A stretch of DNA of 64,000 bases from a virus. Taxonomy: Duplodnaviria; Caudoviricetes. The translations under genes and the position numbers were made by a program. The notes under the pieces were generated by a model. It had not been told where the DNA came from and did not search any database. It worked only from the letters and a program-made list of their open reading frames with translations. The DNA lies in IMG/VR virus record IMGVR_UViG_3300044267_003893, positions 22,071-86,070 of that record; one strand, 5' to 3'. Each line of letters opens with the position of its first letter. Position 1 is the first letter of the stretch. Of this stretch, positions 20,317 to 40,101 are shown piece by piece.

Positions 20317-22251
20317 TTATAGTTTTGAAGTATAGCTATCATCTCTTCCTATTACTTTACCATCTCCATCAAAATCATATTTATTTAAATATTGTGATCT
20401 ATCTAATACATTCTCATCTGATTGATCTTTTGGTCTTTCAAATATTCTCATAAATGCACCAGTTGCATAAGTTGGATTTTTATAATCATTTTTTAAATAT
20501 TTTTCCATACTACGTTCTGTCATAGCATAATCAATTTGACCTTGCCAATTTGTTTTCCAATCTTCTCCTACAAAGTTTTTCATTTTTTCTAATCTAGATT
20601 TATGGTGTTGAAATAATCCTCCAGATGTACCGCTATCTCCCATTACACCTGGTCTAAATCCAGATTCATGTTCTATATTAGCAACTATACCTACTACTTG
20701 ATTTTCAGTTAAATTAGGATTTTTATATTTAATATATTCATATACATCATTTGCTGTAGGTTTAGATTTATTTTTAATATATTTTTTATCTGCTTGAATC
20801 ATACCTAATTTAACAAATTCATGTTTCATTGTGTTAGATATAGTATCACCAGCTAAATATCTTTTATATTCATTTTTTAATCTATTTTGTTTTTTATGGA
20901 ACTTACCTTCTAGATCTCCATTAAATTCCATCTTTTCTATTTCTTCTTTTGAATATTTATTTAAAAACTTATTAGCTATATTAGGTGGTAATGTATTTAA
21001 AATATAATGCTCAAAACTTTTTGATTCATCATATTTTTCATTAACCTCTCTAAACTGCTTCATAAATTCATATGGAGTTTTACTTTTAGATTCAAGATCT
21101 TCTCCATATAAATCAGGAAACATTTCACCTAAAGATGATCCATCTCTATATGTACCTTCTATAAATTTTTTTGTATTAGGTTCTCCCATAAAATTAATTA
21201 ATCCAGCTATTTCTGTTTGAGTATACGGAATATTTAAATTTCTATATTCATTCTGTATTTCTTTAGCTGCTTTCTCCATACTTCTTGAATTTTCATTTAA
21301 CACTCCATTAATCTTATTGTCAAATATTTCATTTTGTTTTTCTATATCATTCTTATATTCATCTAAAGTACCGCCATATATACCAGCATCTTTTAATACA
21401 GAATAATCTTGACCATATAAACCAGAAGAAAAATCATTATATTTTTCTGTATTAATTATACCAGCTTTTAATAAATTTTTATCTACTCCAGGATACCATA
21501 TATTTTCAAATTCTTCTCCAAAACCTTCTGCTAACTTATCATTTTCATGTGTTATATTTTGCCTATTAGGAATAGTATCATTATAAAAAGTACTGTCTTC
21601 TCCTATATTATAAACAAACCCATGACCATGAGGGTCTTCTACTTTATCTGGCTCTATTGAAGCTAATATATTTTTATATTCTTGAGTATCTTGATAACCA
21701 TTATCTTTATAAGTTTTCCACTTATTCCCATATGAAACAGAATTAAAACCACCAGCACCTTTAACAGAACCTTTACGTCCATCATAAAATTTATATGTTC
21801 TATTTAAGTCTACATTTTCATGGCCTGGATTATAAAAATCTATATGAAAATGAGCAGCACCTGGTCTTCCTCTTTCATCTAATATTCTCATATTATGTTT
21901 TTTTAAAAACTCTTTTCCGTGTGGAGTTAAAGTATGTATATGGTCATGAGCATTAAATTTTTTTGTTCCTTGATTTGGTGCAATTTCATAATCTTCAAAA
22001 AAGAAATCTAATAAAGCCCTATGCTCATTACTTGTAGAACTTATGTCTAAAGCACTTGCATGTGCGTGACTTGATGCCTTTTTATGCTTTGTTCTATATG
22101 CACTATTTAAACGAAATAAATAATCTTCTGTTTCTCCTATTTGACCCATAAGATCATAAAGAGCAACCATAGCATGTTCGTCTAGTTGTGTTTTCTGAGG
22201 ATTACTTCCTATTTCATATCCTTTATCACCATACATTTGTTTTGACTCCAT
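20317..22251 (-). CDS. Virion-associated multi-domain peptidoglycan hydrolase: N-terminal M15/LAS-type Zn peptidase plus C-terminal phage tail lysozyme
   Basis: SAYR...SHAHASALD (H-x6-D) and HFH give the LAS Zn ligands. The C-terminal GIVANIEHESGF...GGLFQHH...QIDYAMTE...FERP is a Phage_lysozyme2-like pattern. Confidence 0.8.
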   Translation of the reverse strand: MESKQMYGDKGYEIGSNPQKTQLDEHAMVALYDLMGQIGETEDYLFRLNSAYRTKHKKASSHAHASALDISSTSNEHRALLDFFFEDYEIAPNQGTKKFNAHDHIHTLTPHGKEFLKKHNMRILDERGRPGAAHFHIDFYNPGHENVDLNRTYKFYDGRKGSVKGAGGFNSVSYGNKWKTYKDNGYQDTQEYKNILASIEPDKVEDPHGHGFVYNIGEDSTFYNDTIPNRQNITHENDKLAEGFGEEFENIWYPGVDKNLLKAGIINTEKYNDFSSGLYGQDYSVLKDAGIYGGTLDEYKNDIEKQNEIFDNKINGVLNENSRSMEKAAKEIQNEYRNLNIPYTQTEIAGLINFMGEPNTKKFIEGTYRDGSSLGEMFPDLYGEDLESKSKTPYEFMKQFREVNEKYDESKSFEHYILNTLPPNIANKFLNKYSKEEIEKMEFNGDLEGKFHKKQNRLKNEYKRYLAGDTISNTMKHEFVKLGMIQADKKYIKNKSKPTANDVYEYIKYKNPNLTENQVVGIVANIEHESGFRPGVMGDSGTSGGLFQHHKSRLEKMKNFVGEDWKTNWQGQIDYAMTERSMEKYLKNDYKNPTYATGAFMRIFERPKDQSDENVLDRSQYLNKYDFDGDGKVIGRDDSYTSKL

Positions 22252-22261
22252 AAATATAATT

Positions 22262-25200
22262 TTATCTTATTGATAGATTTATTTTAGTATTAACTAATTT
22301 AAGTATCATTTTTCTTGTATGAAGAAAAGCTGCTGGATCTATAGGATTTCCTAATTCATCAAATATTTCAGGAACATTATTAATATTTGTATAAATTTGT
22401 TCTCCCTCATATATACATGTACCATCATCAACTGTTGCTTCTGGATAATAATTTAATGCTGTTGAGTCCATGCAACCACAAATAGATCCTGGAGGACATA
22501 CGTTTTGAGCATATATACAAGTACAATTATCAGCAGTAGCACCACCAAAATAATTTAATGCACTAGGATCTGTACATCCTGGAACACAACCTTCTTCAAG
22601 AATAGGTCCTTCTCCACATGGAAAACATGGTTCAGGTATTTCAGGAATTTGAATAGCAGGATTTACAAAATATTGAACTCTCTTTTTTAGAATTAAATTA
22701 TTAGTATAATGTCTGAATTTTTTACGTTCTAATTGTGGTTTATCATAATTCATATAAGAAGCATTTAAGTCTCTTATATAACCATTTAATTGAGTTATAA
22801 AAATTGATTCAGATATATTTCTATCATTTGTGATATCCCAAAATTGATCAAATCTATATTTTTGTTCTACTTTACTATATAGTATTTGTATATCTTCAGT
22901 TCCTATTATTGGATATTGTAATGTGTCATTTATATTTGCTGTTTGTTGATTTAATACTAATAAGCCTGAAACCTGTTCAGAATTATATATAATAGCTTCA
23001 TCAAAATTATACATTAAATCATGCCATCTATCATCACATCCAAAATTTAATACACAACCATCTGCATCAAATTTTGGTTTATATTGATATGATTCTAATT
23101 GATACTCAATACTTCTTACTGTATTAACAGACTGACCCATACTTTCAACAAGTTCTATTTCCCAAGGATATTGTACTGAATAATAATTATTAAATAAATC
23201 ACAACGTACATTATGTTTCCATATACCTCCTCCTTGATATGTAGGTTCTACAAATGCTTGTTTATCAAATTGACACATTGCAGGATTTTCATTAACATAT
23301 GTCCATTCTTCTCCTGTACCTGGATGTACTCCATAAAATTCTGAATACCCCCATAAATAAGGATCATCACAATCACCATATTCAGTTAACCATACATAAG
23401 GATCTATATCATCAGGTAGATTAGGAACTGTTAAATCATAATCTTCTAATACAGGACATGAACATTCTATCTTTATACATTTTGGTGGAAAGAAAGGATT
23501 TGTAGCTACTAGCTCACCATTTATAAGTTGATAATTAGCAAAAGTATCACCAACTTGAGTGTATCCTTCAGGACATTCACATTCACAAGGATTAAACATG
23601 TTTTGTATCAATTGATTGAGTATAGGTCCATAATCATCACAAGGTCCGTTTGCATATTGATACAGATAAGGTTGAGATTGAGTTGGTCCAAATCCATATG
23701 CATACTCTCCCTGATCACTACAAGATGAGTTAAGTAATCCGGCTTGAGCATAGTCTGGAAGATCTTCAAAACATGCAGCTACTGGATTAGCAAATACAGC
23801 AAATACTTCAGTTCCTGAATAACAAATATCAGCAGCATCACCACCAAATCCACCCTGACTTAATTGATCACTTAATAAAAATAAAATATTTCTAAAATTA
23901 GAACAAGAATATCTATCATTATAAGTTCCATCACCACATTGAACAGTCGTACTACCTATTGGCAATGCAGATTCTTCAGTATTCATCAGGTTCTCAAATC
24001 CTGCATCTAATCCTTCTTGTATATCTGTTCCACCACCAAAAGGATTTTGAGCATTTGGACATATACCCCAATTTGTAAACATTGGTGTACTTTCAGATTC
24101 ACCAGTATTAGACCAAAGAGTATATCCTGCTTGTATATATCCTGCATTAGCATAAGGTTGAAGTAATTCCATAAGACCACAAGCAAAACCCCATTCTGCT
24201 CCATATACACCCCCAGAATATGTTGATCCAGAAGCATCCATACTAAAAACTATATTCATTGGATCTACAGTTATTTCCGGGTCACAACAATCAACAACGT
24301 CTATATCTATTTGAGCAGGTTGAAGTTCTTGTATTTTATATTCACATTCACCTGTATCTGGATTATATAAAAATCCATCAACACAAGTAGGATATGGAAG
24401 AGGTCTTGTATTTGTTGTCATAAAATGGTTATGACTTTGTATATTAAGTTCTGGATGCCAATCATGAAAAGATACCCATCCTTTTATTTTTGGATCATAA
24501 CTTGCTGTCCATGATACATCTTTAAAGTAATCACTATCTTGTATATCAATTTCTGTTATTACATCATTATACACAGGATCAACACACTCTCTATCTTCAC
24601 AAACTTTAGCAGCACAATGAACTTGTATAGTCTCATCAAAACAATCAGTATCTGTAGCTGGTATATCTGTTCCATATAATACTAACTCATATTCTTCTCC
24701 GAGATGACTACAATCACAATATTCATCAAAAGGCTCCGGTAATGGAGGCAACTCATCACAGACAAGACATCCATCAATCAAAGCACTTTGTAATGTAGGT
24801 TTAATTTGTTGTTTTAGTTGTATAGGATTATATTTCCAATTTTTAGAATAATCATTAACATATGCTACATTTGGAAGACAATCAGGATCACTTGCCTGAT
24901 CTTCACCACACCCATAATAAGATAATATTCCTGACGCTTGAAAAGATGGTACCATATATAAAGGTCCACTTCCTATAGTTATAGGTTCAGTAGTTGGATC
25001 TGCAAGTTGGAAGAAAGGTAATTCAAAGTTATATACAGCACCCGTTTCCATTTCAGTTAAAGGTTCAGCAGTTGTACCTTGCCATGTAACACCACAATCA
25101 AATCCTGAAGGAGATCCTCTTTTACAATTATTTAAGGGGCCTGGTCCTGCAGCATCATAATCATAACCTGTATCATCAAGTGAATCAGGATTGTATAACC

Positions 25201-28200
25201 AAGGGCTAGTAAAATTAAAAGACCCTCCAGTACCATCTCCTAAAAATTGAAACTCTTCATCAGCTTCAAATGCTAGATCATTATGTTCATGTTTTGCTCC
25301 TATAACATGTCCTAGTTCATGTAAAAGTAATTGTGTGCTACCATAATTACCAACATTATCATATTGATCTTGAGTTTCAATATCAAGATCCATATTAAAA
25401 GCACCTTCATTAAGAAAATCATTGCTTAGAGAAAGCGCAGCAGAATAATGAGGTCTATGATAACCTAGATCGGTTATACTATTACAACCTACACTTCCTG
25501 TAAGCCCTACACCACTATTACTAAAATTATTAACAAAACCTGGTATACAACCGTCTGGAAATTGTTCTTCACAAGTTAAAGCTGAGTCTGTATTACATTC
25601 ACAAAATCCATCCCAATTAGATAAATATTCATATATCTCATAAGGTGAACCATCTGGCATTTCTGTGCATTGTCTTGGTCTTGTAATCCAAGTACCAACT
25701 ACATCTTTTGGTATTGCAATTAAATCAGGTTCATTACTATGTAGTGTTCTAGATAGTAAATTTAAAGTATTCATACTTCCCATTAAACCTCCCCATGTAG
25801 GAGCATAAGCAAGACAATATGAATTAATACAATCATCACCAGTATACTGAGCTCCATGAATATATGGACATTGATCTGGATCTTCATATATTGCTATACC
25901 TGCTAATGTAATTTGTGCACCAACATTTTGGAACATTATTTCACTCATTATTGCAATCTGTGCTTCTACATATGCGGTCCAAGCATCAACATCGTTTTGA
26001 GGATAAAAAGCTGGATTATAATTTGTTAACCAGGTATTACACGTGTTACCAAAAGGTGCAGCAGCAAAAGTAAACCAAGGTATATCAACAAAATGTCTTA
26101 TACAAACTTCTTCTCCATCTACAAACATTACAGATGGATTTTGATCTAACATTCTAGATGATATATTTGATTCACCTCTAGCTGATCTTGCTGCTCTTTC
26201 TAGTTTAAAGTTTACTTCTGATTCATTTGCTTTCCAAATATTTCTTAACTCATTTCTTCTGTGTATAATTTCTTCAGGGGTTCCATCATCTGTTCCACAA
26301 CCTAAATTATTAATTTCAACTACACCTTCTCCTTCTACTCTTCCTATTCTATCTGAAAATTTAAATAAACCATATTTTGAATTTTGAAGTTGACCAATAT
26401 CATATTGCTCATCATTTATCATTATAAACCCTGTTATTTTAGAATTATCTTTATTACCTGAAATTATTATTTTTCCTTTATATTTATAAAGTTCATTAGT
26501 TAATATAGATTGTTCTTCTCCTCTTATATTATAAATTCTATTAGAAGTTGGTTTACTATCTTGCATAATAATACCATCCTTAGTACTTCTTCTAACTTTA
26601 AAACTATTTAAAATAGGAGATGCTTCAATTAAATTTACAGTAAGTACTTCATCATTTTTAAATGGTATTTCTAAATGAAATTTCTTAGGTTTTTTATCCC
26701 AAATAGTATCAAAAAATATTTTAGATACTCTAAATGATATACTATTATCTTTATCTCTAGTTCGCTCTGCTTTTTGTTTTTCTATTGGATTAGTAAAAGT
26801 TTTTCTAATAAAGCTTTTTCCAAAAGAAACCATTTCACCAGTATCTGGACTATCTTCATCATCATCTTCACCTTCAGTATCTTCAACTGGTAAAACTTGA
26901 TATGCTCCAGTTACTACTGTACAGCATTTTTGTAATTCTTCATCCCATATCCAACCTCCTGGACAAGGTCTACAACAACTTTGAAGTTCTTCATCCCATT
27001 CATATTTTGGATGAGGACAGCTTCTTACTTGCTCTACTCCAAGACATTCTGTTTCATTTACAAAAAACATTTGATTTTCTGGATCAAATTGTAAACATTG
27101 ATTTGTATTACAAGGTTCATAATCCTTTTTACTAAAGTATACAATGTCATAGTTAGGATCATATACGGCTTGGCAACCAATACCTATTACAGGATTATCA
27201 GCAAATTTAGTTCCTTCTAATTCTGGAAATGCTTTTAATAATCTAGATGGTAAATATGTATTAAACCATTGTTTCATTCCTGCATCAGCAATATTAGTTA
27301 ATGACTGTGAGTAATTAAATATTTTACCTTGAGCTTGAGACATGTAATATACTCCTGCAGGTGTATTTATTACACTCAATGAATTTTCACATGATCCATA
27401 TTCATGTGGTAAATCAGCTGTACTTATTTGTTGCATTGGATCATTAAATAAACCTCCATCACCAATAGTAAGCTTTGTGTTAAAGTCTGTACTTAAAGTA
27501 TCAACACCTTGAAATAATTGTGGAGCTATATGAGGAAATAAAATTAATGCTCCTGATTTAGATATAGGTTTAACTGTAGTAGGAACGTTTTTAAAGTCTT
27601 GATAATTATTTGGTAAGAATACTCTCCAAAAATCTTTTTTAGATTCTTTATTAGCTTGATTTGAATATATTATTCTTTTAGTATAGTAATCATAACATGT
27701 ATCTGCTACTATAGGATCATAGTCTCTTGGTTGTATTAATCCGTAAGTTACCATTTGACTTACCATATTAGATTTACTTAAAGAAAAATCATATTTATAA
27801 TAATTACCTTTCTCTATTATATCTGCATGAAATAATGATTGAATATCTGTATAGTCAGCCCAATCATAATGTTTTTGATCTGTACTTTCTCCTTGATGTC
27901 TTAATCCTACATTAAGTTCTGATTCAACAAAGAAATCATTTATACCACTACAATGAGTATACATATAAGCAGTTCTTAAAATAAACATACTATTAGTTGA
28001 AGTATTTTCTTGATTTTCAACATCTTCTAATACAGGACCATTAGCAAGATAAACACCAGATCCAAGATCTGATGTATCACCAATAGCAAATCCAGGTGGT
28101 CTATCTAAATTACGCATTGCTGATGGAACAGCATTACCATCAGTCCAATCAAAAGAAAAGTTTGTAATAGGTGCAAGTATATTATGAATATCATATTTTG

Positions 28201-31200
28201 TAGTATCCATCCAATATCTTGCAAAACCAACATTCATATACTGTCTATAATCAAAAGCAAATTTATCAGGTTGCCCATTTAAAAATTCCCAAAAGAAAGG
28301 CATTATAACCTTTTCATTATATCTATTTATATAACAATCACCACCAAATAAAATACCTGATTTAAATACTTCTCCTGGTACAAATGTATCATCATCTAAA
28401 TTTTCAGTAAATGGAACTAAAGTATCTGGTGTAACTTCAACATCTTCAACATACACACAAGTACAATCATCATTAGTGGCAGTTGAATTATAGTTAACTG
28501 CTAATGGATCTGTACAACCTGCAATACAGTTTCCTAATATCCAATCATCTCCTTGACAAGGAGAACATGGTTCAGGTTCTTCTGTAAATCCTGGTCTAAT
28601 AAATTTTTGAGCACAAGGTACAGGTAGTTGTTTAATACCATCTAATTGACCATATTGATTATCCATTGCAAACTTTAATCCTACATAATGAGCACCAATA
28701 TATGATATATAACTTTGAGTAGGAGTAGTCCAATTCTCTAAAGTACCTATTGTAAATCTAGATGAATCAAAGTTATTACCATCTTGCCATATTGGAGTTT
28801 GAATATTTCCAAAAGTTCCTGCAGTTTGAATAGTAACAGTAGCAGGTCTATGTAAATTATTAATTTTAATATTCTCAGTAGTATTAGTGGATCCAAAGTC
28901 TTGTAAGGTGTTACCTACATATCTTCCTTTGGTTATATTATTTCTATATACAGATCCTTCTTGAAGTTCAAATGTATCTGAATACAGACCATATGAATTA
29001 TATTTATAGGCATGATTTCTTAATCCTGCTACATTATATATAAAGTCAATTATTATATCTCCACCTACAGCAGCATAATGGAATGTCATAAATACACCAC
29101 TTATAATCTGTCCTAAGTTAGGTAGTGATTTTACATCAGTACCTTCAAACTTAATTTTTCTATTACCTATTGCTTCACCAAAAGCAGCTTGTTGTATAAG
29201 GTTAAGAGGTTGAAGTGTACCGTCTAATATTGTACCTGTACCTGAGTAATATGCAGCTTCAGCTATACCTGGTGTAGCAAGAGAACCCTGTGTAAATCCA
29301 GTTTCTGCAGCTTCTATAAGTAAATTATTTACAATACCTGGATTAGGACCAAATAAGGGAGGTGGAGCTCCTATTCCTGTTGCTACTTCAAGTTCAGTAG
29401 CTCTTTTACCACGCATTTTACTAATTCCATAACCTACACCGACCACTGCTGCAATGATAGCTGCAAAGTCTCGTAATAGTGTAACTTTAGGATGTCCTTC
29501 GGAAGGTCTAAAAGATCCTGTTTGAATACCCCTTGTCCATCCGTAAGTCTTAACTTCAGCAGGATTTAAATAAGGTCTTTGGAAAGATGTCTCAGGTGAA
29601 TGAAAAGTATAAAAATTATTACAATTCAAAGGATTAGTACTATTACCACAATATCCTGTACCTGGTTGTCCCATAGGTTGTGGGTTTGTATTATCCCAAA
29701 ATTGTGGTGCAGCTGTTGTTAAAAAAACATCATTGTTAGTACTATTATATGGATAGTTAGCATGAAGACCTACAGATCCTTGAGCAATTCCATCTCCAAA
29801 AGTATCTACTAGAGGATATTGTTTCATGTTTCTAAATAATCCTTTTGATAGTATAGATTTGTTACCTTCTCTTGATCCAACTAAAATTTCATAACCTACA
29901 ACATTTGATATTGGTTTACCAGAATTATCTATAGGCCAAGCAATATTATCAAATTCAACTCCTAAAATACGTATTCTTTGATTATTATTATTAGATCTAT
30001 CAACAGTCCATTCTGTAGTATCTGTTTGTTCTTCTGGAAATTTATGATGTCTAATAGGTTTACCACATAAATCTCCCCATCTTCCATGAGGATCTTCTGA
30101 AGGATATAATTCTGTTGATTCCCAATATCCCATTTGACCTTTAGAAAGTATAACACCTCCATCATCTGTTGTTGTTACTCCATCAAATTCATCTACAGAT
30201 GCTGTATTAGAAACTTGCCATGGTTCTGTTTCATTTGATCTAAGTATATTATTACCATCTGTAAGTGTAGAATCTTTTTCATCATCAGTTGCTTCACGTC
30301 CAGGAATATGATATGAACTAGATTTTTCACCAGTTTGATAAATAAATCTAATAAAGAAAGCATATTGTTCATCTCTCATAAATGTTGGCTTATTACCACC
30401 ATTCTTATAATACTCAGCAGGATATTCTACAGAAACCCATTTAGCAGTTATGTTATTTGCTAAAGGTTGATAATTAAAATCAAAATTTGTTGTTGGACTT
30501 ATTCTAAGAAGATAATCATTAAGAGGTATCATCTTATCAGATTTTTCATATGCAGGATTTTGTAAAGTTAAATTCTGCAATGGAACTTGTTGTGATGTAG
30601 CTTTATTTGTAGGGATATAATCAATACTAATAGTTGTTTGTTTTGTACTGTAAAATCCCACTTGAACAGCTGTTGGTTGTTGCTGTTGATTTGATAATAT
30701 AACTAATTTATAAAAATCAAAATTTTCATCTAAGTTAGAAATTTTTATATTTAATGAACAGGCTGTACCATCATTATCAAATAAAGGTTGAATATTAGAT
30801 ACACCAATATAATCACCTATTTGTTGTTCATTTATTGTATATGCAACATAGGCTTGATAAGATCCATTAGGTAATTGTCCAGGACTATCTCCTTTCTCAA
30901 TATCAATACATGGAGTTTTCATTAATGGTGCTAAACGTATAAGATCACAATTGAGTCTTTTTGGTTCTATGTCTTCATAAACATAACAATCAGAACCATC
31001 AATTCCAGGACCTGAAACTTGTTCTTGAAACCAAGGAACATATTCATTTTCAGGTATACTATTAGCAAAACCTAAATTAAGAGTTCTAGAAGGATTTAAA
31101 CCATCATCCCAATATATTTGCCAAGTACAATCATAGTTTTCTTTAGCAGCTCCTGTTATAAGATTAGAATGTCTAAAGTTTAAACATTGATCATTTACTA

Positions 31201-31531
31201 ATGTAGTATATTCACATTTACTATCATCAAATAATCCTATCTCACTTCCCCAATTATCATTTCCAGAAAATATTATCCAACTATCTCCATATAAATAAAT
31301 GGCACCTATAATAACAAATCCTGTTTGAACACATATAAGATTAGCAGGTTCATTACCTATAGTACCAGCATCACCTTTTGCAGAATTATTAATACAATTT
31401 CTACAGTGTACCCAGTTTTCTTTTCCCACAAAACTTTTATGAGAATCTTTTATCATACCTTTTACAAATACATCAGTATCTACATTAGAGGTATCATTAG
31501 GTTTAAAGTTTTTACTTTTATTCTCTGCCAT
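22262..31531 (-). CDS. Tail stabilisation protein (crAss-like, P22 gp10-like class), 3089 aa, with inserted metzincin protease, vWA and Cys-rich modules
   Basis: Conserved-looking segments (NDYLLRIS...FMRDEQYAFFIRF; GWVSFHDWHP; GIWKHN...YPWEIE) are interrupted by HELGHVIGAKH (25289-25321) and DASGS (24224-24238). Located after the ring-protein genes. Confidence 0.75.
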   Translation of the reverse strand: MAENKSKNFKPNDTSNVDTDVFVKGMIKDSHKSFVGKENWVHCRNCINNSAKGDAGTIGNEPANLICVQTGFVIIGAIYLYGDSWIIFSGNDNWGSEIGLFDDSKCEYTTLVNDQCLNFRHSNLITGAAKENYDCTWQIYWDDGLNPSRTLNLGFANSIPENEYVPWFQEQVSGPGIDGSDCYVYEDIEPKRLNCDLIRLAPLMKTPCIDIEKGDSPGQLPNGSYQAYVAYTINEQQIGDYIGVSNIQPLFDNDGTACSLNIKISNLDENFDFYKLVILSNQQQQPTAVQVGFYSTKQTTISIDYIPTNKATSQQVPLQNLTLQNPAYEKSDKMIPLNDYLLRISPTTNFDFNYQPLANNITAKWVSVEYPAEYYKNGGNKPTFMRDEQYAFFIRFIYQTGEKSSSYHIPGREATDDEKDSTLTDGNNILRSNETEPWQVSNTASVDEFDGVTTTDDGGVILSKGQMGYWESTELYPSEDPHGRWGDLCGKPIRHHKFPEEQTDTTEWTVDRSNNNNQRIRILGVEFDNIAWPIDNSGKPISNVVGYEILVGSREGNKSILSKGLFRNMKQYPLVDTFGDGIAQGSVGLHANYPYNSTNNDVFLTTAAPQFWDNTNPQPMGQPGTGYCGNSTNPLNCNNFYTFHSPETSFQRPYLNPAEVKTYGWTRGIQTGSFRPSEGHPKVTLLRDFAAIIAAVVGVGYGISKMRGKRATELEVATGIGAPPPLFGPNPGIVNNLLIEAAETGFTQGSLATPGIAEAAYYSGTGTILDGTLQPLNLIQQAAFGEAIGNRKIKFEGTDVKSLPNLGQIISGVFMTFHYAAVGGDIIIDFIYNVAGLRNHAYKYNSYGLYSDTFELQEGSVYRNNITKGRYVGNTLQDFGSTNTTENIKINNLHRPATVTIQTAGTFGNIQTPIWQDGNNFDSSRFTIGTLENWTTPTQSYISYIGAHYVGLKFAMDNQYGQLDGIKQLPVPCAQKFIRPGFTEEPEPCSPCQGDDWILGNCIAGCTDPLAVNYNSTATNDDCTCVYVEDVEVTPDTLVPFTENLDDDTFVPGEVFKSGILFGGDCYINRYNEKVIMPFFWEFLNGQPDKFAFDYRQYMNVGFARYWMDTTKYDIHNILAPITNFSFDWTDGNAVPSAMRNLDRPPGFAIGDTSDLGSGVYLANGPVLEDVENQENTSTNSMFILRTAYMYTHCSGINDFFVESELNVGLRHQGESTDQKHYDWADYTDIQSLFHADIIEKGNYYKYDFSLSKSNMVSQMVTYGLIQPRDYDPIVADTCYDYYTKRIIYSNQANKESKKDFWRVFLPNNYQDFKNVPTTVKPISKSGALILFPHIAPQLFQGVDTLSTDFNTKLTIGDGGLFNDPMQQISTADLPHEYGSCENSLSVINTPAGVYYMSQAQGKIFNYSQSLTNIADAGMKQWFNTYLPSRLLKAFPELEGTKFADNPVIGIGCQAVYDPNYDIVYFSKKDYEPCNTNQCLQFDPENQMFFVNETECLGVEQVRSCPHPKYEWDEELQSCCRPCPGGWIWDEELQKCCTVVTGAYQVLPVEDTEGEDDDEDSPDTGEMVSFGKSFIRKTFTNPIEKQKAERTRDKDNSISFRVSKIFFDTIWDKKPKKFHLEIPFKNDEVLTVNLIEASPILNSFKVRRSTKDGIIMQDSKPTSNRIYNIRGEEQSILTNELYKYKGKIIISGNKDNSKITGFIMINDEQYDIGQLQNSKYGLFKFSDRIGRVEGEGVVEINNLGCGTDDGTPEEIIHRRNELRNIWKANESEVNFKLERAARSARGESNISSRMLDQNPSVMFVDGEEVCIRHFVDIPWFTFAAAPFGNTCNTWLTNYNPAFYPQNDVDAWTAYVEAQIAIMSEIMFQNVGAQITLAGIAIYEDPDQCPYIHGAQYTGDDCINSYCLAYAPTWGGLMGSMNTLNLLSRTLHSNEPDLIAIPKDVVGTWITRPRQCTEMPDGSPYEIYEYLSNWDGFCECNTDSALTCEEQFPDGCIPGFVNNFSNSGVGLTGSVGCNSITDLGYHRPHYSAALSLSNDFLNEGAFNMDLDIETQDQYDNVGNYGSTQLLLHELGHVIGAKHEHNDLAFEADEEFQFLGDGTGGSFNFTSPWLYNPDSLDDTGYDYDAAGPGPLNNCKRGSPSGFDCGVTWQGTTAEPLTEMETGAVYNFELPFFQLADPTTEPITIGSGPLYMVPSFQASGILSYYGCGEDQASDPDCLPNVAYVNDYSKNWKYNPIQLKQQIKPTLQSALIDGCLVCDELPPLPEPFDEYCDCSHLGEEYELVLYGTDIPATDTDCFDETIQVHCAAKVCEDRECVDPVYNDVITEIDIQDSDYFKDVSWTASYDPKIKGWVSFHDWHPELNIQSHNHFMTTNTRPLPYPTCVDGFLYNPDTGECEYKIQELQPAQIDIDVVDCCDPEITVDPMNIVFSMDASGSTYSGGVYGAEWGFACGLMELLQPYANAGYIQAGYTLWSNTGESESTPMFTNWGICPNAQNPFGGGTDIQEGLDAGFENLMNTEESALPIGSTTVQCGDGTYNDRYSCSNFRNILFLLSDQLSQGGFGGDAADICYSGTEVFAVFANPVAACFEDLPDYAQAGLLNSSCSDQGEYAYGFGPTQSQPYLYQYANGPCDDYGPILNQLIQNMFNPCECECPEGYTQVGDTFANYQLINGELVATNPFFPPKCIKIECSCPVLEDYDLTVPNLPDDIDPYVWLTEYGDCDDPYLWGYSEFYGVHPGTGEEWTYVNENPAMCQFDKQAFVEPTYQGGGIWKHNVRCDLFNNYYSVQYPWEIELVESMGQSVNTVRSIEYQLESYQYKPKFDADGCVLNFGCDDRWHDLMYNFDEAIIYNSEQVSGLLVLNQQTANINDTLQYPIIGTEDIQILYSKVEQKYRFDQFWDITNDRNISESIFITQLNGYIRDLNASYMNYDKPQLERKKFRHYTNNLILKKRVQYFVNPAIQIPEIPEPCFPCGEGPILEEGCVPGCTDPSALNYFGGATADNCTCIYAQNVCPPGSICGCMDSTALNYYPEATVDDGTCIYEGEQIYTNINNVPEIFDELGNPIDPAAFLHTRKMILKLVNTKINLSIR

Positions 31532-31536
31532 TTTAT

Positions 31537-32451
31537 TTATCTTACAGGAGGATAACTTCTAAACATATCATAATAATTATGATATTGTGCTTTTCTATTT
31601 ACACTCCATATTTTTTGCATGTCTTTAAAGTCTGGAGTATTTATAAATCCTAATGCATTATTACGTGCTGCTCTTAATTTACCTTGCATATATTTTAATT
31701 TTTGAGAAACATCTTCTCCATCAAATAACATGTTTTCTAATATTCTTTCTTTCAATGCATATTCATAGTATTCATTACAATAAGGATGATCTAATACTAA
31801 TAATTCTCCTTCTTCATTCTCCATTGCTCCTTGATAATTCATGTATACTTTTCCTGTATCAAAATTAGTTAATAAAAATCCATCTTTTATTTCTGCAATA
31901 TCAACAGCTTCAGCATTAATATTAGGACAACCGTTTTCAATAACTGAAGTACTATTTTTTATTCTTAATGGATAAAATCTTGTAGAAGTTCTATATTGTT
32001 CAGCACCCATATATTGAACTACCATATATTGATTAGTATATACAGTTTCTCCATTTTCTTCTTTAGGACAAGTTTTAACTACACAAACATCTTTACATGT
32101 AGGATCATCACAAGGACCAACGTCTCCTCCATCAGGAGATGGTACATACTCAGTTTGAGTTGTGTCAACATGTGTACCAGAAGGAAATGTATTTACAGTT
32201 TTAAATTCATCACATACAAAAGCATAATTTAGATATTTAAAATCAGAGGGTAATTTAACTTTACTATGTTCAACTTCTAATACATCTTCTTTAGTTCTAT
32301 GTATTTTTAATCCTAAATCATAATTAACTCTGATTGCAACTTTAATTAATTGCTGAGGTTCAACCATCCCTTCTAAAGCTTGACTAGAAAAGTCAATACT
32401 AACATCTTCCATTAATTGATTAAATGTTCTATATTTATGTGAAATTGCCAT
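31537..32451 (-). CDS. Tail ring / tail tubular protein (crAss-like)
   Basis: 304 aa with the motif YMNYQGAMENEEGELLVLDHP...YEYALK, directly before the tail stabilisation gene as in crAss-like gene order. Confidence 0.65.
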   Translation of the reverse strand: MAISHKYRTFNQLMEDVSIDFSSQALEGMVEPQQLIKVAIRVNYDLGLKIHRTKEDVLEVEHSKVKLPSDFKYLNYAFVCDEFKTVNTFPSGTHVDTTQTEYVPSPDGGDVGPCDDPTCKDVCVVKTCPKEENGETVYTNQYMVVQYMGAEQYRTSTRFYPLRIKNSTSVIENGCPNINAEAVDIAEIKDGFLLTNFDTGKVYMNYQGAMENEEGELLVLDHPYCNEYYEYALKERILENMLFDGEDVSQKLKYMQGKLRAARNNALGFINTPDFKDMQKIWSVNRKAQYHNYYDMFRSYPPVR

Positions 32452-33122
32452 TATCTATTTAAATTTTGTTTATTATCTGAATCTTCTGAAGGAACTTTTA
32501 ATGTATTAAATGTTTCTTGCATTACTTGTTGTTCTATTTCTGCAAATAAGAATTCAGGTATAAACATTCTTTGTTTATATCTTGGTATACAGTTATCTGA
32601 AGGATCACAATTAAAATTTGAAATATCATTTTCCCAAACCCCTTCTATTTTTACAGCATCCCAATCTATATTAGGAAAATATAAATAATCATTTAAAAAC
32701 CAAAAGTATTTAGTTGTGTTATATTTAAATGTAGTTGACTTAGTCATTGATGCATAAGTTCCTGGTGCAGTAGCTTGACACTCTGTACAACCATCAATTG
32801 ATGATACAGTTCTAATTAATGGACCCCAATATCCTTCTTGAAATGCTGGAAGTTTTAATTTTGTACGTTTAATAGTTATATCACTTTTTATTCCAATATA
32901 ATCTGATTCTATTTTATCTATATCAACTAATTCTACATAATCTAAACTTTGCCAAATACCATTAAACTTCATTAGCTTATTAGCATTATCTTGTCTTCTC
33001 ATGTATAATTGAGCATATTTTTTAATCAGACTATAAAGATATCTATCTGTAACAAATGCATCTTCAGATTCAGCTTTTATTTGACCTCTGACCCGAGATA
33101 CTATATCTCCTATTGTTTGCAT
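32451..33122 (-). CDS. Conserved structural (ring-type) protein
   Basis: 223 aa; YFWFLNDYLYFPN motif; coupled by a 1-nt overlap to the next gene; synteny. Confidence 0.55.
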   Translation of the reverse strand: MQTIGDIVSRVRGQIKAESEDAFVTDRYLYSLIKKYAQLYMRRQDNANKLMKFNGIWQSLDYVELVDIDKIESDYIGIKSDITIKRTKLKLPAFQEGYWGPLIRTVSSIDGCTECQATAPGTYASMTKSTTFKYNTTKYFWFLNDYLYFPNIDWDAVKIEGVWENDISNFNCDPSDNCIPRYKQRMFIPEFLFAEIEQQVMQETFNTLKVPSEDSDNKQNLNR

Positions 33123-35700: not shown

Positions 35701-38700
35701 TTAACAATCTGCTACATATTTTATATTAACCCAATAAATACCAGTAGTAGCTCCATCTCTATCATATTGTGCAACTCTTCTAACTGAATTTGTAGTAGCA
35801 GCTCCATGTTGTGCATAATATGCTCCATCTACTGGCTGATCAGTTACAGCTCCAGCATTTCCTCCTGCTGCAGATAAATAAGCTGGTACACTTGGATCAA
35901 ATTGAACTCCTGTTGTATTATATAAGTTTATACAATTACTTGCAGTTACCGCAGCAGTTCCTGCTTTAGTACAATTTGTGGTATCACCTGAATCAGTAGC
36001 ATATGTTGAAACCGGATCTCCATTAAGTGTTCCTGACATAATTTGTACAGAATCAGTACCTGTTGGACATTTTGTATCAGTAGTTAATTCCATGCCAGAA
36101 GTATCAATACCTGTTACACGCATTATTGCATTACCTATAAAGTTTGATTGATCTCCTCCAGAATGTAAATTAGAATCAGTTGTTAAATAACTCTTATCTA
36201 TAAAAGGAACAACTCTAAATCCATAATTATATAAACCACTAATAGTATTAGATCCACCTACAGTTGTTCCTGTATATGGAACCATTTGAGATGAGTTAGG
36301 TCCAATATAACCATCTATATTAATTGGATTTTTAACACTACCAGTAGGGAATCCTTTTAATCCTGTTTCTGATAATACTGTTCCTGTTAAAGCACCTGCT
36401 GTTTGTAATACTGTTGCAGCACTTCCATCTTGTGATGAAGAAACTATAGGTACCAATACTTGTTTTAAATCAAACTTTTTATATGTACATCCTTGAGCAG
36501 TTCCCCAACTAGTTCTTGCAGAACCATTAACGTATAATATATCTAATAATTCATCATAATTTTGTTGATACTTAGCAGTAGGTTGTGAACCCCATCCTGC
36601 TGATAAAGTTGCACCACCATAATTACCTTTAGAATTAACATCTCCAATAAAGCAAATTAAGTATACAGTACTTGGTACAGAACCTCCAGATGCCCAATAA
36701 GAAGGTAAACTCTTAAATGAAGAATATCCTGGTGCTACAGTTATACTACCACTTGCTCCATTAGCTTTATCTACCATTGATTTAGTATATTCCATATAAT
36801 CACCAGAATTACCACCTGCTACAGGTACATAATTAATAGTTCCTGTCCATGTTGAACAATTAGATTGAATTAATGTTTTAACTCTTTCCATTTCTGTTTT
36901 TATAACAGCTGCTTCATCTTCACTTAATATATTAGTATCAACAAATACAGTAATATCCGTATCTGTATTTTGAACTGTTGAAGCATCAACTATAGGTATT
37001 GTTATAGTATTAATAGTTCTATTACCTGGATTACCTATAGTACAATCTGTTTCTGCATATACCTCTACAGAATCAATTCCACTAGCTGGACGTGTAGAAT
37101 TAGGAGTATATTTTAATTGAACAGTTCCTCCTAAATTAGAATCATATGTTGAATCAGAAGGTAAAACAAAAGAAGTTGTACCACCTAAAGTAGATGTAGC
37201 ATTCCATGTAATTGGAGTAGTTTGTGTTGAATATCCTACTATATCAATAGGGATTCTTAAAGTTTTACTAGCAACTGCATACCATGCATGTCTATCTGGT
37301 GCATATGCTTCTGAAGTTGAAATTGTAGAAGTATCTCCATATTTAGTTCTTACATAAGATGGCTTGCAATCACAACAAAAAACAACTTGATCTATAGTTT
37401 TATTGACAGTATTAGCTAAAGCATAAATATAATATGTTGTAGCTCCTGCTTTTTTTAGAGATCCTACATATTGCCATCCGTTTTCATTTGAATTCATTGT
37501 AGTAGTCATTCCACTAGCTGGATATGCTACATTTCCACAACTTATACTAGTTGTAGGATTATCACTAATAGCTGTTGTATTAAGAACAAAATGACCATCT
37601 GTTCCTGTTTCAGTACTATCTGTACCTTTATAAACTTCAGGTAATCCTGTAGAAGAATTAAATCCTACTATCCATGCTGTAGTTGTAGCTCCACTTCTAT
37701 TAGTAGCTAATGTTAATTTTGTAGTACCTATACTTGATATTGTTGAAAGATAATCAGAAGATGTTTTACTATAGGATGTACAAGTAGCAGAAGTAGTTGT
37801 AAATGTAGTTCTATCACAAGTTGAAATATTTCCTGATAAACTTGTTGTTTGAACATAAATATCATATTTAGTTCCTGCAATTAATCCAGCTGTTTTTCCA
37901 GTTGTAGAAGTTGCTGTTGGTGATTTAATAGTTTGTTTAGAAATCATACTTCCTGATTGATCCTCAACTATAACTTCATAAGTAGATTTTGAAACAGTAC
38001 TCATTTTAGTTACACTATATTCTACAGATGTTTCTCCTGTAGTAGTTAAAGTAACTGTAGGACATGCTGATGAATTTTCTAATGTAAATTCCATAATACG
38101 TTCACATTGATGAGAACCATCTGTAAAACAAAAATCTATTTTTATTTTAAAATTACTATTTAAATCTAATCCTTTACCATTTAAACCTGCAATACTAAAA
38201 CCTCTAGTATTTGTTAAGTAATTATTAACTTGTACATAATCTATATAAGTATTAAGAGATGAGTCTTCTACAGTAATTTTTGTTCCTTTTACTTTATCAC
38301 AATCATAAAATCCATCAGGAATTACCATGCTTGTAAATAAAAATTTAATACTTGATACAGCTCCTGTTGTTTGATTTTTAACTAAACTTACTTTTGGATC
38401 ATATGTAAATCCAGTACATCCAGAAGGAGTTACAGTAGTTTGTAAACTATCAAGTGCTGTTCTCATATCACATATAGTTTTCCATGCATTACTAAATGAT
38501 TGAGCTAAATTTGATGGTGAAGTATTCCATCCTGGAATTGATGTCATGGTACCATTACCACTTAAACGATCTTTAGTATTTAAACCAACACATGAAGCTT
38601 TAGAAGCTTTTAAAATTTCTGGAGCAGTTCCTAATGCTTGTTTTAATTTACCATAATCTTTTTCTAAGAGTTCTAGGAGTTGATTCATCTCCATTCTTTG

Positions 38701-40101
38701 ACCCTTCTTACCTATATATTTTGGTACAACTTTAGGTGGAACGTATGCAGCACCTCCTTTACCTCTTTCTATTTCTCTTATTTGATTTTTAAGTGTTGTA
38801 ATAATAGGTAGTCTAGCTATGTGAGAATTGCTAACTCCCGTACCAAATCCTTGACTTTCTCCTACTATTGTAACATCACCTGTATCTACTGTCCCCATTC
38901 CTGGTTTAGGAGCACACGAACCATGACTAGCATTTAATAAACAACATATCTTTTGATTTACAAAATCTGTCCAACCACTATATTGATATTCTTCTACTGT
39001 TGTACTAGCATTGTCATCAAAATCACCATAATTATCTGGATCATAAGCCCAATTTATTATTTCAGAATAATAATCATCTTCAAGAGTTTGCAAGAACATA
39101 GTGTCACCTGCTACAAGTGGGGTATTTTGATCTGGATCATTTATGTTGTTATATAAATCACCAACTAATTGTGAACTGCCACTACTAGTATAACCAGTAA
39201 AAAAACATTGTGGTAATACCACCTTAATTATTCCTGGATCTCCAGGTTCACCTTGTAGACCTTGTTCACCCTGAATAGTTTCTCCTGTAAAAGATGTACC
39301 ATCACTATATAACCAAGTAAATGTACCATCACCATTATCTGTAGTACTTATAATTGTTATACCATCTGCACCTTGTTCTCCTTGTAAACCTTGCTCTCCT
39401 TGTAAACCTTGCTCTCCTTGTATACCTTGCTCTCCTATTGGTCCTTGCCATAAATCAATTACATAAGGCTCATCTCCTGAACAAGTTGTATAAATTAAAA
39501 AAGTATTATTATCATTTTGTACAACATTACTTATACCACAACCATCTGGCCCAATATCTCCTTGTAATCCTTGTAATCCTTGTAATCCTTGCAATCCTTG
39601 TGCACCTTGTGGTCCTTCTGGTCCTTCTGGTCCTTCTAAACCTTGTAGTCCTTGTTCTCCTTGTAGTCCCTGTTCTCCTTGTGCTCCAGACAAACCCTGC
39701 ACACCTTGTAAGCCTTGCGGTCCTACAGCTCCTTGTGGTCCTTGTTGTAATTCTAGTCCATCTATATCTGCTATTATTTCTTGAATAGCATCAATATTAA
39801 AATTTACTTGATTTTGTACATTACATAATGTATAAATTATATCTTGAGTAATTTCTTGAATTGTAGTTCCTGGAGCTTCCTCATCTAAAGTACAAAGTGG
39901 TAAAATACCACTTACATCAACAGAAGCTTCTAATCCATTTTCTATTAAAGAACATATTAATTCAGCAATTTTTGCAATAACAGTGCTTACATTATCACCA
40001 TTACATACATTAATACAGTTTAAATCTGGCCCTTGCCAAATAACACATTCAGATGATATAGGATTGCATCCTCTTGTAGCCTGAGTACTTAATGGTAACA
40101 T
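35701..40101 (-). CDS. Tail/head fibre protein with collagen-like repeats and an FN3 domain, 1466 aa
   Basis: Three G-X-Y blocks ([13 protein letters not shown]..., [13 protein letters not shown]..., [13 protein letters not shown]). FN3-like ...[16 protein letters not shown] at about 37830-38065. Thr/Ser-rich beta-type C-terminal half. Confidence 0.8.
39205..39760 (-). repeat. Collagen-like G-X-Y tandem repeats (9/18-nt units)
   Basis: Tandem TCCTTGTAA units (about 39558-39597), GGTCCTTCT x3 (39611-39637) and ACCTTGCTCTCCTTGTAA units (about 39371-39436). Confidence 0.9.

Follow-up and report, generated by a model that had tools for sequence, protein, structure and literature searches.

Does the tail protein encoded at this locus carry a von Willebrand A (vWA) domain with an intact metal site, and what would such a domain do on a phage? 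The locus lies in a stretch of viral DNA of 64,000 nucleotides, here called the window. A preliminary description of it, made from the letters, proposed a MIDAS-containing vWA domain as the second insert in a tail protein, flanked by small Cys modules and possibly acting together with a protease. We followed these proposals with profile searches, structure prediction and a survey of related proteins.

The muzzle protein and its phage

All motif strings on which the preliminary description relied were found at their given positions; a single minus-strand ORF at 22262-31531 of the window, encoding 3089 aa (P0001), contains them all. The product was recognised as the muzzle, the tail-tip protein, of a marine crAss-like phage from Pfam matches of its homologues, its similarity to crAss001 gp44 and its gene position. 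The full-length homologues P0013, P0015 and P0043 match Pfam crAss_MUZ (PF25731) with E of about 1e-23; P0001 itself gave no crAss_MUZ match in a whole-protein Pfam scan. The HMM of the P0001 family matches residues 6-151 of gp44 with E=9.7e-8. Also on the minus strand are the genes for tail ring protein 1 (31537-32451; Pfam CrAss_Ring_1, E=3e-10), tail ring protein 2 (32451-33122; CrAss_Ring_2, E=3e-17) and a Crassvirus-type major capsid protein (47046-48683; Crass_capsid, E=1e-29). The order CrAss_Ring_2, CrAss_Ring_1, then P0001 is the same as that of gp43-gp44 in crAss001.

Full-length alignment of insert-free relatives with gp44 by hhalign reached a probability of 28%, too weak for slot mapping, and was replaced by a structural comparison confined to the C-terminal region. 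In this comparison P0001 was represented by its relative P0084, which is 50% identical to it over the first 700 aa. The last 546 aa of P0084 align structurally to residues 1071-1371 of gp44 (7qol_P) with Z=12.9, and the next matches are podophage nozzles with Z of 7-8. The crAss001 protein gp44 (PDB 7QOK/7QOL) resembles P0001 in family, in gene order after the ring genes, in the N-terminal HMM match and in the C-terminal propeller; it differs in being only 1371 aa long, with neither a vWA domain nor a protease.

Cultured relatives identified by the P0001 N-terminus turned out to be only distant, with at most 27% identity: Cellulophaga phages phi17:2 and phi4:1, Flavobacterium phage FpV4 and Leptolyngbya phage Lbo-JY46. 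A tblastn search of the C-terminal third of P0001 against 50,697 phage records returned a single weak match. The host probably belongs to the marine Flavobacteriia.

The vWA domain and its MIDAS

Residues 2415-2648 of P0001 (window 23588-24289, minus strand) are an integrin I-domain-like vWA domain and not a chance motif, as identified by AlphaFold, Foldseek, VIA-align, BLASTP and a family profile. The profile search suggested in the preliminary description did not recognise the domain directly: neither Pfam VWA (PF00092) nor VWA_2 (PF13519) matched the whole of P0001 at E<=1 or a 287-aa sub-region at E<=10. The link to recognised vWA domains is nevertheless provided by the family. The vWA domain of P0001 aligns to the insert of P0016, at residues 1510-1679 of that protein (BLASTP E=1e-9), and that insert matches Pfam VWA PF00092 with E=6.4e-7 and 30.2 bits vs a cut-off of 23.8. 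Searched against the PDB, the profile of the family alignment A1 matches the vWA domain of PTMP1 (1.8e-7) and the integrin alpha1 I-domain (8.6e-6), and DxSxS, T and D line up in the alignments. The protein language-model neighbours of the domain all belong to VWA families. No match was found by phmmer among PDB sequences. A phmmer search against 1.84 billion representatives gave 2 matches, both fragments of the same family, so that no cellular donor of the domain can be named. There are 13 Cys in the domain, and ~30 additional residues form an excursion ahead of strand beta4.

A Rossmann-type vWA fold, whose absence had been set beforehand as a possible refutation, is predicted for residues 2415-2648. 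The AlphaFold model (pLDDT 73, pTM 0.71) shows alternating strands and helices, with low confidence in the C-terminal third (pLDDT 45-60). The best Foldseek matches of the model are vWA domains only (CMG2, C2a, TEM8 and integrin alphaM/alphaX). In VIA-align, the model superimposes on the Mg-bound integrin alphaM I-domain 1ido with Z=15.5 and an rmsd of 3.1 A over 169 residues; a Z of at least 8 was obtained for 584 compared chains, and all 50 matches listed are of vWA type. Rpn10 of the proteasome and the ArnAB/Sec23-like complex also appear among the structural matches.

The MIDAS is complete at the sequence level, with all five residues present. The first motif lies in NIVFSMDASGS (residues 2426-2436): D2432-x-S2434-x-S2436, encoded at 24224-24238 on the minus strand as the preliminary description had it, stands at the C-terminal end of beta1 in the model, and its D, S and S are kept in 114, 114 and 115 of 121 copies. 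The MIDAS Thr2502 (24026-24028, minus strand) belongs to GGGTDIQEGL (residues 2499-2508, window 24008-24037), is kept in 110/121 copies and corresponds in the family profile to the Thr of the integrin alpha1 MIDAS. Asp2555 (23867-23869, minus strand), in ILFLLSDQ (residues 2549-2556, window 23864-23887), is kept in 116 of the 121 copies and directly follows strand beta4. Each of the five residues D-S-S-T-D is therefore retained in 110-116 of 121 family copies, which we count as an indication of selection for metal binding. The claimed canonical beta-alpha order is borne out by the AlphaFold model, where DxSxS ends beta1, the Thr lies just ahead of a helix and the Asp comes right after beta4. 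The residues thus occupy canonical topological positions aligned with the integrin alpha1 I-domain, as judged from the family profile and the topology of the model.

Of the known systems, the integrin alpha I-domains (alphaM/CR3 1ido, alphaX, alpha1 and alphaL) are the best structural match, covering 169/184 residues. The likeness extends to architecture: in both cases the vWA domain is inserted, with adjacent termini, in a loop of a beta-propeller-containing scaffold. Unlike in integrins, however, the scaffold here is a phage nozzle-type propeller, and sequence identity is only ~17%. The architectural likeness is convergent, not inherited.

Insertion slots, cassettes and variability

Two insertion slots were mapped in the C-terminal beta-propeller region, which matches gp44 1071-1371, and the vWA domain fills the second of them. 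This upholds the proposal of a second insert in one tail protein, between WVSFHDW (residues 2352-2358) and GIWKHN (residues 2769-2774). The former belongs to conserved block A (SWT.SYDPK..W.SFHDW...; 24401-24520, minus strand), which forms the border between slots 1 and 2 and served as an anchor over 199 homologues. The latter lies in block B (GGIWKHN.RCD...YPWE...; 23081-23230, minus strand), the anchor at the distal border of slot 2. Slot 1 is filled by an insert of 867 aa (24521-27118, minus strand), which carries a reprolysin-like HExxH module with HELGH at residue 2071. The match to Pfam Reprolysin_5 (E=4e-5, 24.4 bits) is below the cut-off of 27.

Small Cys modules do flank the vWA domain on both sides, as was proposed, but they are part of the host scaffold and not of the insert. 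On the N-terminal side of the insertion point, TCVDGFLYNPDTGEC (residues 2382-2396, window 24344-24388) contains a Cys beta-hairpin, C2383...C2396 (24344-24385, minus strand), both Cys of which are invariant in alignment A1; insert-free relatives have this hairpin too. On the C-terminal side, CECPEGY (residues 2651-2657; 23561-23581, minus strand) represents a CxCPxGY element that in insert-free relatives follows only a few residues after the first hairpin region. In relatives without any insert the CPxGY...C and CxCPxGY hairpins are both retained and joined directly. The vWA domain is thus inserted cleanly, as a cassette: it separates two disulfide-type hairpins that belong to a Cys-rich beta excursion of the C-terminal beta-propeller region.

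These observations do not agree with the suggested architecture of protease, vWA and Cys/EGF-like modules resembling ADAM or extracellular matrix proteins. The only EGF-type Pfam match, cEGF, is sub-threshold (E=0.08, 13.2 bits vs a cut-off of 26.6) and spans 9 residues, and Pfam scans of P0001 found no disintegrin domain. An EGF- or ADAM-like reading of the Cys modules was rejected because of this sub-threshold match and the persistence of the hairpins in insert-free relatives. We know of no vWA domain in ADAM proteins.

The presence and absence of the insert, also raised in the preliminary description, was surveyed in 117 relatives picked by N-terminal similarity. In 75 of them slot 2 is occupied by a vWA domain, in 24 by another insert and in 4 by an HExxH module; in 14 it is empty. 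Since these 14 relatives do without any slot-2 insert, muzzle function does not depend on the vWA domain. Up to two vWA copies per chain occur in 26/117 relatives. A slot-1 HExxH insert together with a slot-2 vWA domain was seen in only 6/117, and HExxH inserts are also paired with other slot-2 contents or sit in slot 2 itself. Because the pairing is rare and the HExxH module occurs with other slot-2 contents, the slot-1 protease and the slot-2 vWA are independent cassettes.

Variation in muzzle length through insertions has already been published, the insertions being located in the crass and IG2 domains (PMC10172136). Both slots of P0001, by contrast, lie in the C-terminal propeller region, and the two-slot finding extends the published variability beyond the crass and IG2 domains. 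The muzzle is a two-slot display platform in which vWA, protease and other cassettes are exchanged. It resembles in this respect the modular, mosaic domains with which phage tail fibres and spikes bind receptors, where an optional hypervariable cassette is likewise combined with a conserved scaffold; here, however, the cassette is a MIDAS vWA domain inside a nozzle/muzzle protein and not on a fibre. A literature search found no published vWA domain in a crassvirus muzzle or phage tail protein. One archaeal-virus paper was considered as a precedent for a tail vWA domain and rejected, as it concerns CobT and not tails.

The vWA domain is the fastest-changing part of the muzzle protein. Between P0001 and its nearest haplotype, P0002, dN/dS amounts to 1.37 for the vWA domain, 0.91 for the slot-1 protease module, 0.16 for the N-terminus and 0.06 for block A (Fisher p=3e-7), all from one haplotype pair and thus a single independent comparison, since the 90% cluster holds two haplotypes only. 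Between the two, dS is even along the gene (0.05-0.10). The vWA domain has 47 replacements, none of them at a MIDAS residue and 33 of them in predicted loops. The dN/dS of the vWA domain is not significantly >1 (binomial p=0.22), and relaxed constraint on the loops may be an alternative to selection as the cause of the high value. Import of a divergent segment by recombination was also considered for this pair and is not supported, the dS of the vWA domain (0.099) being no higher than that of its flanks. Across the family, in pairs whose N-termini are 90-100% identical, the vWA domains are 64% identical at the median and only 33% in the most divergent pair. For some pairs the contrast reaches 98% N-terminal vs 36-40% vWA identity, and here cassette exchange is the likelier cause.

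Probable host binding and alternative roles

The vWA domain is probably a swappable, metal-dependent host-binding module that sets specificity at the tail tip. As the fastest-changing part of the tail-tip protein, present in most marine relatives, it probably helps decide which host is bound. In crAss001 the muzzle lies at the tail tip and is proposed to contact the cell surface (PMC10172136). Since crAss001 muzzles are hexameric, six vWA copies would be expected at the tip. With the N- and C-termini of the domain together and opposite the MIDAS, the metal site should face away from the scaffold. When the tail tip touches the outer membrane, an acidic side chain or carboxylate of a host surface molecule would complete the coordination sphere of a divalent cation at the MIDAS; attachment would then be metal-dependent, and the variable loops would choose the molecule recognised. 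Mg2+ is abundant in seawater. Metal-dependent adhesion by a MIDAS vWA domain at the tip of a surface filament is known from pilus tip adhesins, two of which match the model: Mfa5 of the Bacteroidota species Porphyromonas gingivalis (6tnj/6to1; VIA-align Z=13.9) and SpaC of Lactobacillus rhamnosus (6m48; Foldseek E=3e-5). These differ in being bacterial adhesins for host tissue, with an unrelated domain context.

Marine crAss-like phages are abundant; hardly any of them have been cultured, and to our knowledge none has a known receptor. An optional hypervariable tail-tip domain with well-understood chemistry, namely a metal ion and an acidic ligand, offers a concrete handle on them. The vWA domain could be expressed alone as a probe for host cells and receptors, switchable by metal and EDTA.

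The preliminary description went further and suggested a module that binds and cuts. In such a module the vWA MIDAS would capture a host surface protein and bring it to the reprolysin-like protease in slot 1 of the same chain. The two modules do sit in adjacent slots of one chain, both evolve fast (the dN/dS of 0.91 and 1.37 of the single haplotype pair), and the nearest vWA relatives of the P0001 copy, P0019, P0003 and P0004, likewise have an HExxH insert in slot 1. The closest known precedent for such a mechanism is complement C2/factor B, a better analogy than ADAM, in which the vWA MIDAS docks the complex and the linked protease cuts. C2a (2odp, Foldseek E=1.4e-6) and factor B are among the best structural matches, as is every other vWA class; their protease, however, is a serine protease fused directly to the vWA domain, whereas that of P0001 is a zinc metzincin in a separate slot. 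Such cooperation is thus possible in this lineage, but it is not the general logic of the family: only 6 of the 117 relatives combine the modules, 69 of the 75 slot-2 vWA domains have no protease-type HExxH motif in slot 1, and the HExxH inserts turn up beside other slot-2 contents or in slot 2. On balance we consider it unlikely.

A clamp within the virion appears more doubtful still. The MIDAS would in that case bind an acidic residue of some other virion component, such as a fibre, a cargo plug or an adjacent muzzle subunit, and would stabilise or gate the tail tip instead of binding the host. Conservation of the MIDAS throughout the family, irrespective of host, is consistent with such a role. 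So is the tendency of vWA domains to build complexes, with Rpn10 and the ArnAB/Sec23-like complex among the structural matches, and the tails of crAss001 are heavily cross-braced (PMC10172136). However, the domain is optional, slot 2 being empty in 14 and differently filled in 28 of the 117 relatives, and it is the least conserved segment between near-identical phages, where a fixed structural interface should show the opposite.

The Flavobacteriia are particle-associated, and binding to the surroundings has parallels in the Ig-domain 'adherence to mucus' model and in the collagen-binding vWA domain of the mussel byssus protein PTMP1. That the vWA domain serves to tether the virion to host-rich exopolymers, algal surfaces or marine particles, and not to a host receptor, is nonetheless very improbable, even with PTMP1 as the best PDB sequence-profile match and up to two vWA copies per chain in some relatives. 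Near-identical phages differ in this domain in a cassette-like, hypervariable way, which agrees better with an arms race against a variable host receptor than with binding to a generic matrix, and the tail tip is the site of host contact (PMC10172136).

If the vWA domain is the host-binding module favoured here, it might in addition work by integrin-like allostery, which we regard as a long shot. A ligand at the MIDAS would shift the C-terminal helix, and the resulting pull through the disulfide-braced neck into the propeller would help to open the gate loop. Were this so, a mechanical link would connect receptor recognition with the discharge of DNA and cargo proteins, and the virus would have convergently reinvented the integrin arrangement of an I-domain in a propeller.

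A giant muzzle protein

With a G+C content of about 30%, the window is AT-rich; almost all genes lie on the minus strand, and the assembly is a single 86-kb contig. A single minus-strand ORF (22262–31531) encodes the 3089-aa protein P0001 and contains the whole von Willebrand A (vWA) feature. Directly upstream of it lies tail ring protein 1 (31537–32451), preceded by tail ring protein 2 (32451–33122); both were assigned by Pfam, as was the crassvirus major capsid protein (47046–48683). The ring genes followed by the P0001 ORF reproduce the gp43-gp44 gene order of crAss001. P0001 itself has no match to Pfam crAss_MUZ; its full-length homologues match this family with E of about 1e-23, and the P0001-family profile matches residues 6–151 of crAss001 gp44 (E = 9.7e-8). 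The scaffold was modeled on the C-terminal 546 aa of P0084, an insert-free relative (pLDDT 79). This model matches gp44 residues 1071–1371 with Z = 12.9, the next-best structures being podophage nozzle proteins (Z 7–8) and generic WD40 propellers (Z 6–7). Gene order, the crAss_MUZ matches of homologues, the profile match and the structural match to gp44 thus show that this marine crAss-like phage encodes its giant muzzle protein in the ORF. In crAss001 gp44, IG2 and crass domains span residues 318–1021, and what remains falls to a seven-bladed propeller and a ring-joining domain; the muzzle is a tail-tip hexamer for which contact with the cell surface was proposed (PMC10172136).

The N-terminal 700 residues of P0001 match 1817 proteins (length range searched 1698–5406 aa), many of them from Tara and other ocean metagenomes. 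Cultured relatives are distant (≤27% identity), and their hosts are Cellulophaga, Flavobacterium and, in one case, the cyanobacterium Leptolyngbya.

Several neighboring genes deserve mention. Just downstream of the muzzle gene, a 644-aa protein (20317–22251) has a C-terminus that matches tape-measure-type PHROGs, and its counterpart in a related phage contig carries Phage_lysozyme2; the protein is probably a cell-wall hydrolase carried in the virion. A 1466-aa protein (35701–40101) whose residues ~110–290 match collagen-like and tail-fibre PHROGs is likely a tail fibre, and the phage would therefore possess a fibre-borne binding system besides the muzzle cassettes. In the contig of P0084, the gene after the muzzle (L002:15508–19917) encodes a 1469-aa protein with Pfam ART-PolyVal (PF18760), which points to an ADP-ribosyltransferase domain; in this related phage, the protein is presumed to be ejected cargo.

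The vWA domain and its predicted metal site

The preliminary description reported a MIDAS-intact vWA domain as a second insert of this tail protein, and every motif string it quoted is in place. DASGS occupies residues 2432–2436 (24224–24238), the MIDAS Thr is T2502 within GGGTD, and the MIDAS Asp is D2555 within LLSD. Two Cys-containing strings lie at residues 2382–2396 and 2651–2657, and the blocks WVSFHDW (2352) and GIWKHN (2769) stand on either side of the vWA region, as described.

The P0001 region (residues 2415–2648; 23588–24289) has no match to Pfam VWA, even at E ≤ 10, nor any in a PDB sequence search, and it finds two matches only among 1.84 billion representative proteins. The suggested profile search succeeded indirectly, via a homologue and a family profile. 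The region aligns with residues 1510–1679 of the homologue P0016 (BLASTP E = 1e-9), with DxSGS, Thr and Asp all aligned, and residues 1511–1703 of P0016 are a Pfam VWA domain (E = 6.4e-7) exceeding the curated cut-off. A profile of 54 family members matches the solved vWA domains of mussel PTMP1 (1.8e-7), integrin alpha1 (I-domain, 8.6e-6), TRAP and complement C2, the printed alignments placing its MIDAS motifs in register with those of integrin alpha1.

An AlphaFold model covering the region (287 aa, pLDDT 73, pTM 0.71) has the strand-helix alternation of vWA domains, the final third of the domain being of low confidence. Foldseek returned exclusively vWA domains as top matches, and VIA-align superimposed the model on the Mg-bound integrin alphaM I-domain (Z = 15.5, rmsd 3.1 Å, 169/184 residues) and on CMG2 (Z = 15.2). 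The language-model neighbors belong to VWA families without exception. Transitive homology, profile, model and language-model neighbors therefore agree in predicting a vWA domain. The MIDAS elements take up the canonical positions in the model, with DxSxS at the end of strand beta1, T2502 ahead of a helix and D2555 after strand beta4. Among the fetched homologues, an iterated HMM found 121 vWA copies, in which the MIDAS D, S, S, T and D are kept in 114, 114, 115, 110 and 116 cases, respectively.

The vWA region (23582–24289) contains 13 Cys, at residues 2415, 2416, 2451, 2491, 2532, 2543, 2570, 2587, 2604, 2631, 2649, 2651 and 2653. Two Cys occur only where the insert is present, a conserved one located nine residues N-terminal of DxSxS and an additional one immediately ahead of the scaffold CxC; they may form a disulfide clamping the neck of the inserted domain.

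Two insertion slots

Three conserved blocks of the muzzle homologues, X (...DIVYF.KKDY), A (SWT.SYDPK..W.SFHDW) and B (GGIW.HN.RCD...YPWE), anchor two slots and place the vWA domain in the second. Slot 1 (X to A) measures ~35–50 aa if empty and slot 2 (A to B) ~135–150 aa. Aligned with ten relatives in which slot 2 is empty, the vWA domain of P0001 is a clean cassette. In these relatives the first Cys hairpin (CPPGY...C plus a short strand) almost abuts CxCPxGY, which shows that the small Cys modules flanking the insert are native scaffold. The modules are real, and their reading as part of an ADAM-like or EGF-like unit was rejected; EGF-type Pfam matches in the vWA sub-region amount to one, sub-threshold.

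Slot occupancy was surveyed in 117 relatives picked by N-terminal similarity without bias for the insert; the set derives from the top 120 among the 1817 matches, themselves found by searching only proteins of 1698–5406 aa, so its fractions are indicative only. Slot 2 holds a vWA domain in 75 relatives, another insert in 24 and an HExxH-containing insert in four, and is empty in 14; slot 1 is empty in 68, and its content is a vWA domain in 26, HExxH in seven and another insert in 16. The insert is optional, and the P0001 arrangement of HExxH in slot 1 and vWA in slot 2 occurs in 6/117. The bind-and-cut module envisaged in the preliminary description is ruled out as a general role, since most vWA copies lack a protease; for the P0001 lineage it is a possible, though rather improbable, reading. 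A tree built from 183 copies of the vWA domain shows the closest relatives of the P0001 copy in proteins that likewise have a slot-1 protease. The same tree groups 45 of the 46 slot-1 copies in one pure clade (support 0.99), indicating that the slots hold old paralogous lineages, not freely hopping copies.

HExxH lies in slot 2, not slot 1, in the muzzle proteins P0065, P0068, P0096, P0116 and P0126, and the protease-type cassette can therefore take either slot; this assignment is based on the motif and on precomputed reprolysin Pfam labels, not on fold. Some large inserts of both slots carry neither vWA nor HExxH; slot 2 spans 300–850 aa without vWA in 24/117 relatives (e.g., P0054, P0055, P0058, P0091). 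P0140 has a precomputed PF01607 label.

Sequence change and proposed role

The 90% cluster of P0001 comprises two haplotypes, each on several contigs. Nei-Gojobori counts for the window gene against the other haplotype, a single pair, give dN/dS of 0.16 for the N-terminal 700 aa, 0.06 for block A, 0.91 for the slot-1 insert and 1.37 for the vWA domain (69.3 non-synonymous and 13.7 synonymous changes), with dS uniform along the gene (0.05–0.10). The vWA domain differs strongly from the N-terminus (Fisher p = 3e-7); its ratio does not significantly exceed neutrality (p = 0.22). Predicted loops receive 33 of the 47 vWA replacements, including stretches right after each MIDAS element, and the MIDAS residues themselves are unchanged. 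With P0001 as reference, identity has a median of 33% in the vWA domain, 54% in the N-terminus and 64% in the C-terminal scaffold. The pattern extends beyond the two haplotypes: across 35 protein pairs with 90–100% N-terminal identity, vWA identity has a median of 64% and a minimum of 33%; some pairs with 98% at the N-terminus retain 36–40% in the vWA domain, and for these cassette exchange is the best explanation.

Adhesins with vWA/MIDAS domains are well known and include integrins, anthrax toxin receptors and pilus tips (e.g., Mfa5 of a Bacteroidota species). The termini of a vWA domain adjoin each other, opposite the MIDAS, and an inserted copy would therefore present its metal site outward, like an integrin I-domain on its propeller. 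A hexameric tail tip would carry six such domains; a host surface molecule would contribute the acidic group that completes the coordination of bound Mg2+, Mn2+ or Ca2+. Because a conserved metal site is combined with fast-changing loops in an optional cassette, we favor, with some reserve, the slot-2 vWA domain as a host-specificity determinant. A clamp within the virion fits the variability less well and seems unlikely; tethering to marine particles, which likewise fits it less well, is more doubtful still.

Literature searches turned up no account of a vWA domain in muzzle or nozzle proteins. Muzzle length variation was noted in the crAss001 paper, with insertions assigned to the crass and IG2 domains (PMC10172136), whereas the P0001 slots lie in the C-terminal propeller region. 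VWFA proteins occur widely among viruses, and no BFVD match is named a muzzle protein. VWA is already among the precomputed Pfam labels on metagenomic relatives, and the muzzle insert is not unique to the P0001 phage; as a class, an integrin-like I-domain that is set as a cassette into the tail-tip propeller of a phage and is subject to diversifying change is an undescribed variant. In crAss001, gp52 (L001:35503–36270) is a separate small protein outside the virion module, annotated with a vWA-like domain; its context is unrelated to the P0001 insert.

Two other parts of the muzzle vary against the nearest haplotype. The protease-bearing slot-1 insert (24521–27118, residues 1472–2337) is also fast-evolving, with 72–75% amino-acid identity around residues 1900–2300 and 97–99% in the flanks. 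The third variable patch, residues 701–800 (~29130–29430), lies in the Gly/Ala/Pro-rich segment that follows the 700 conserved N-terminal residues; here identity is 83% and the lengths differ by 6 residues, in a region otherwise 96–100% identical.
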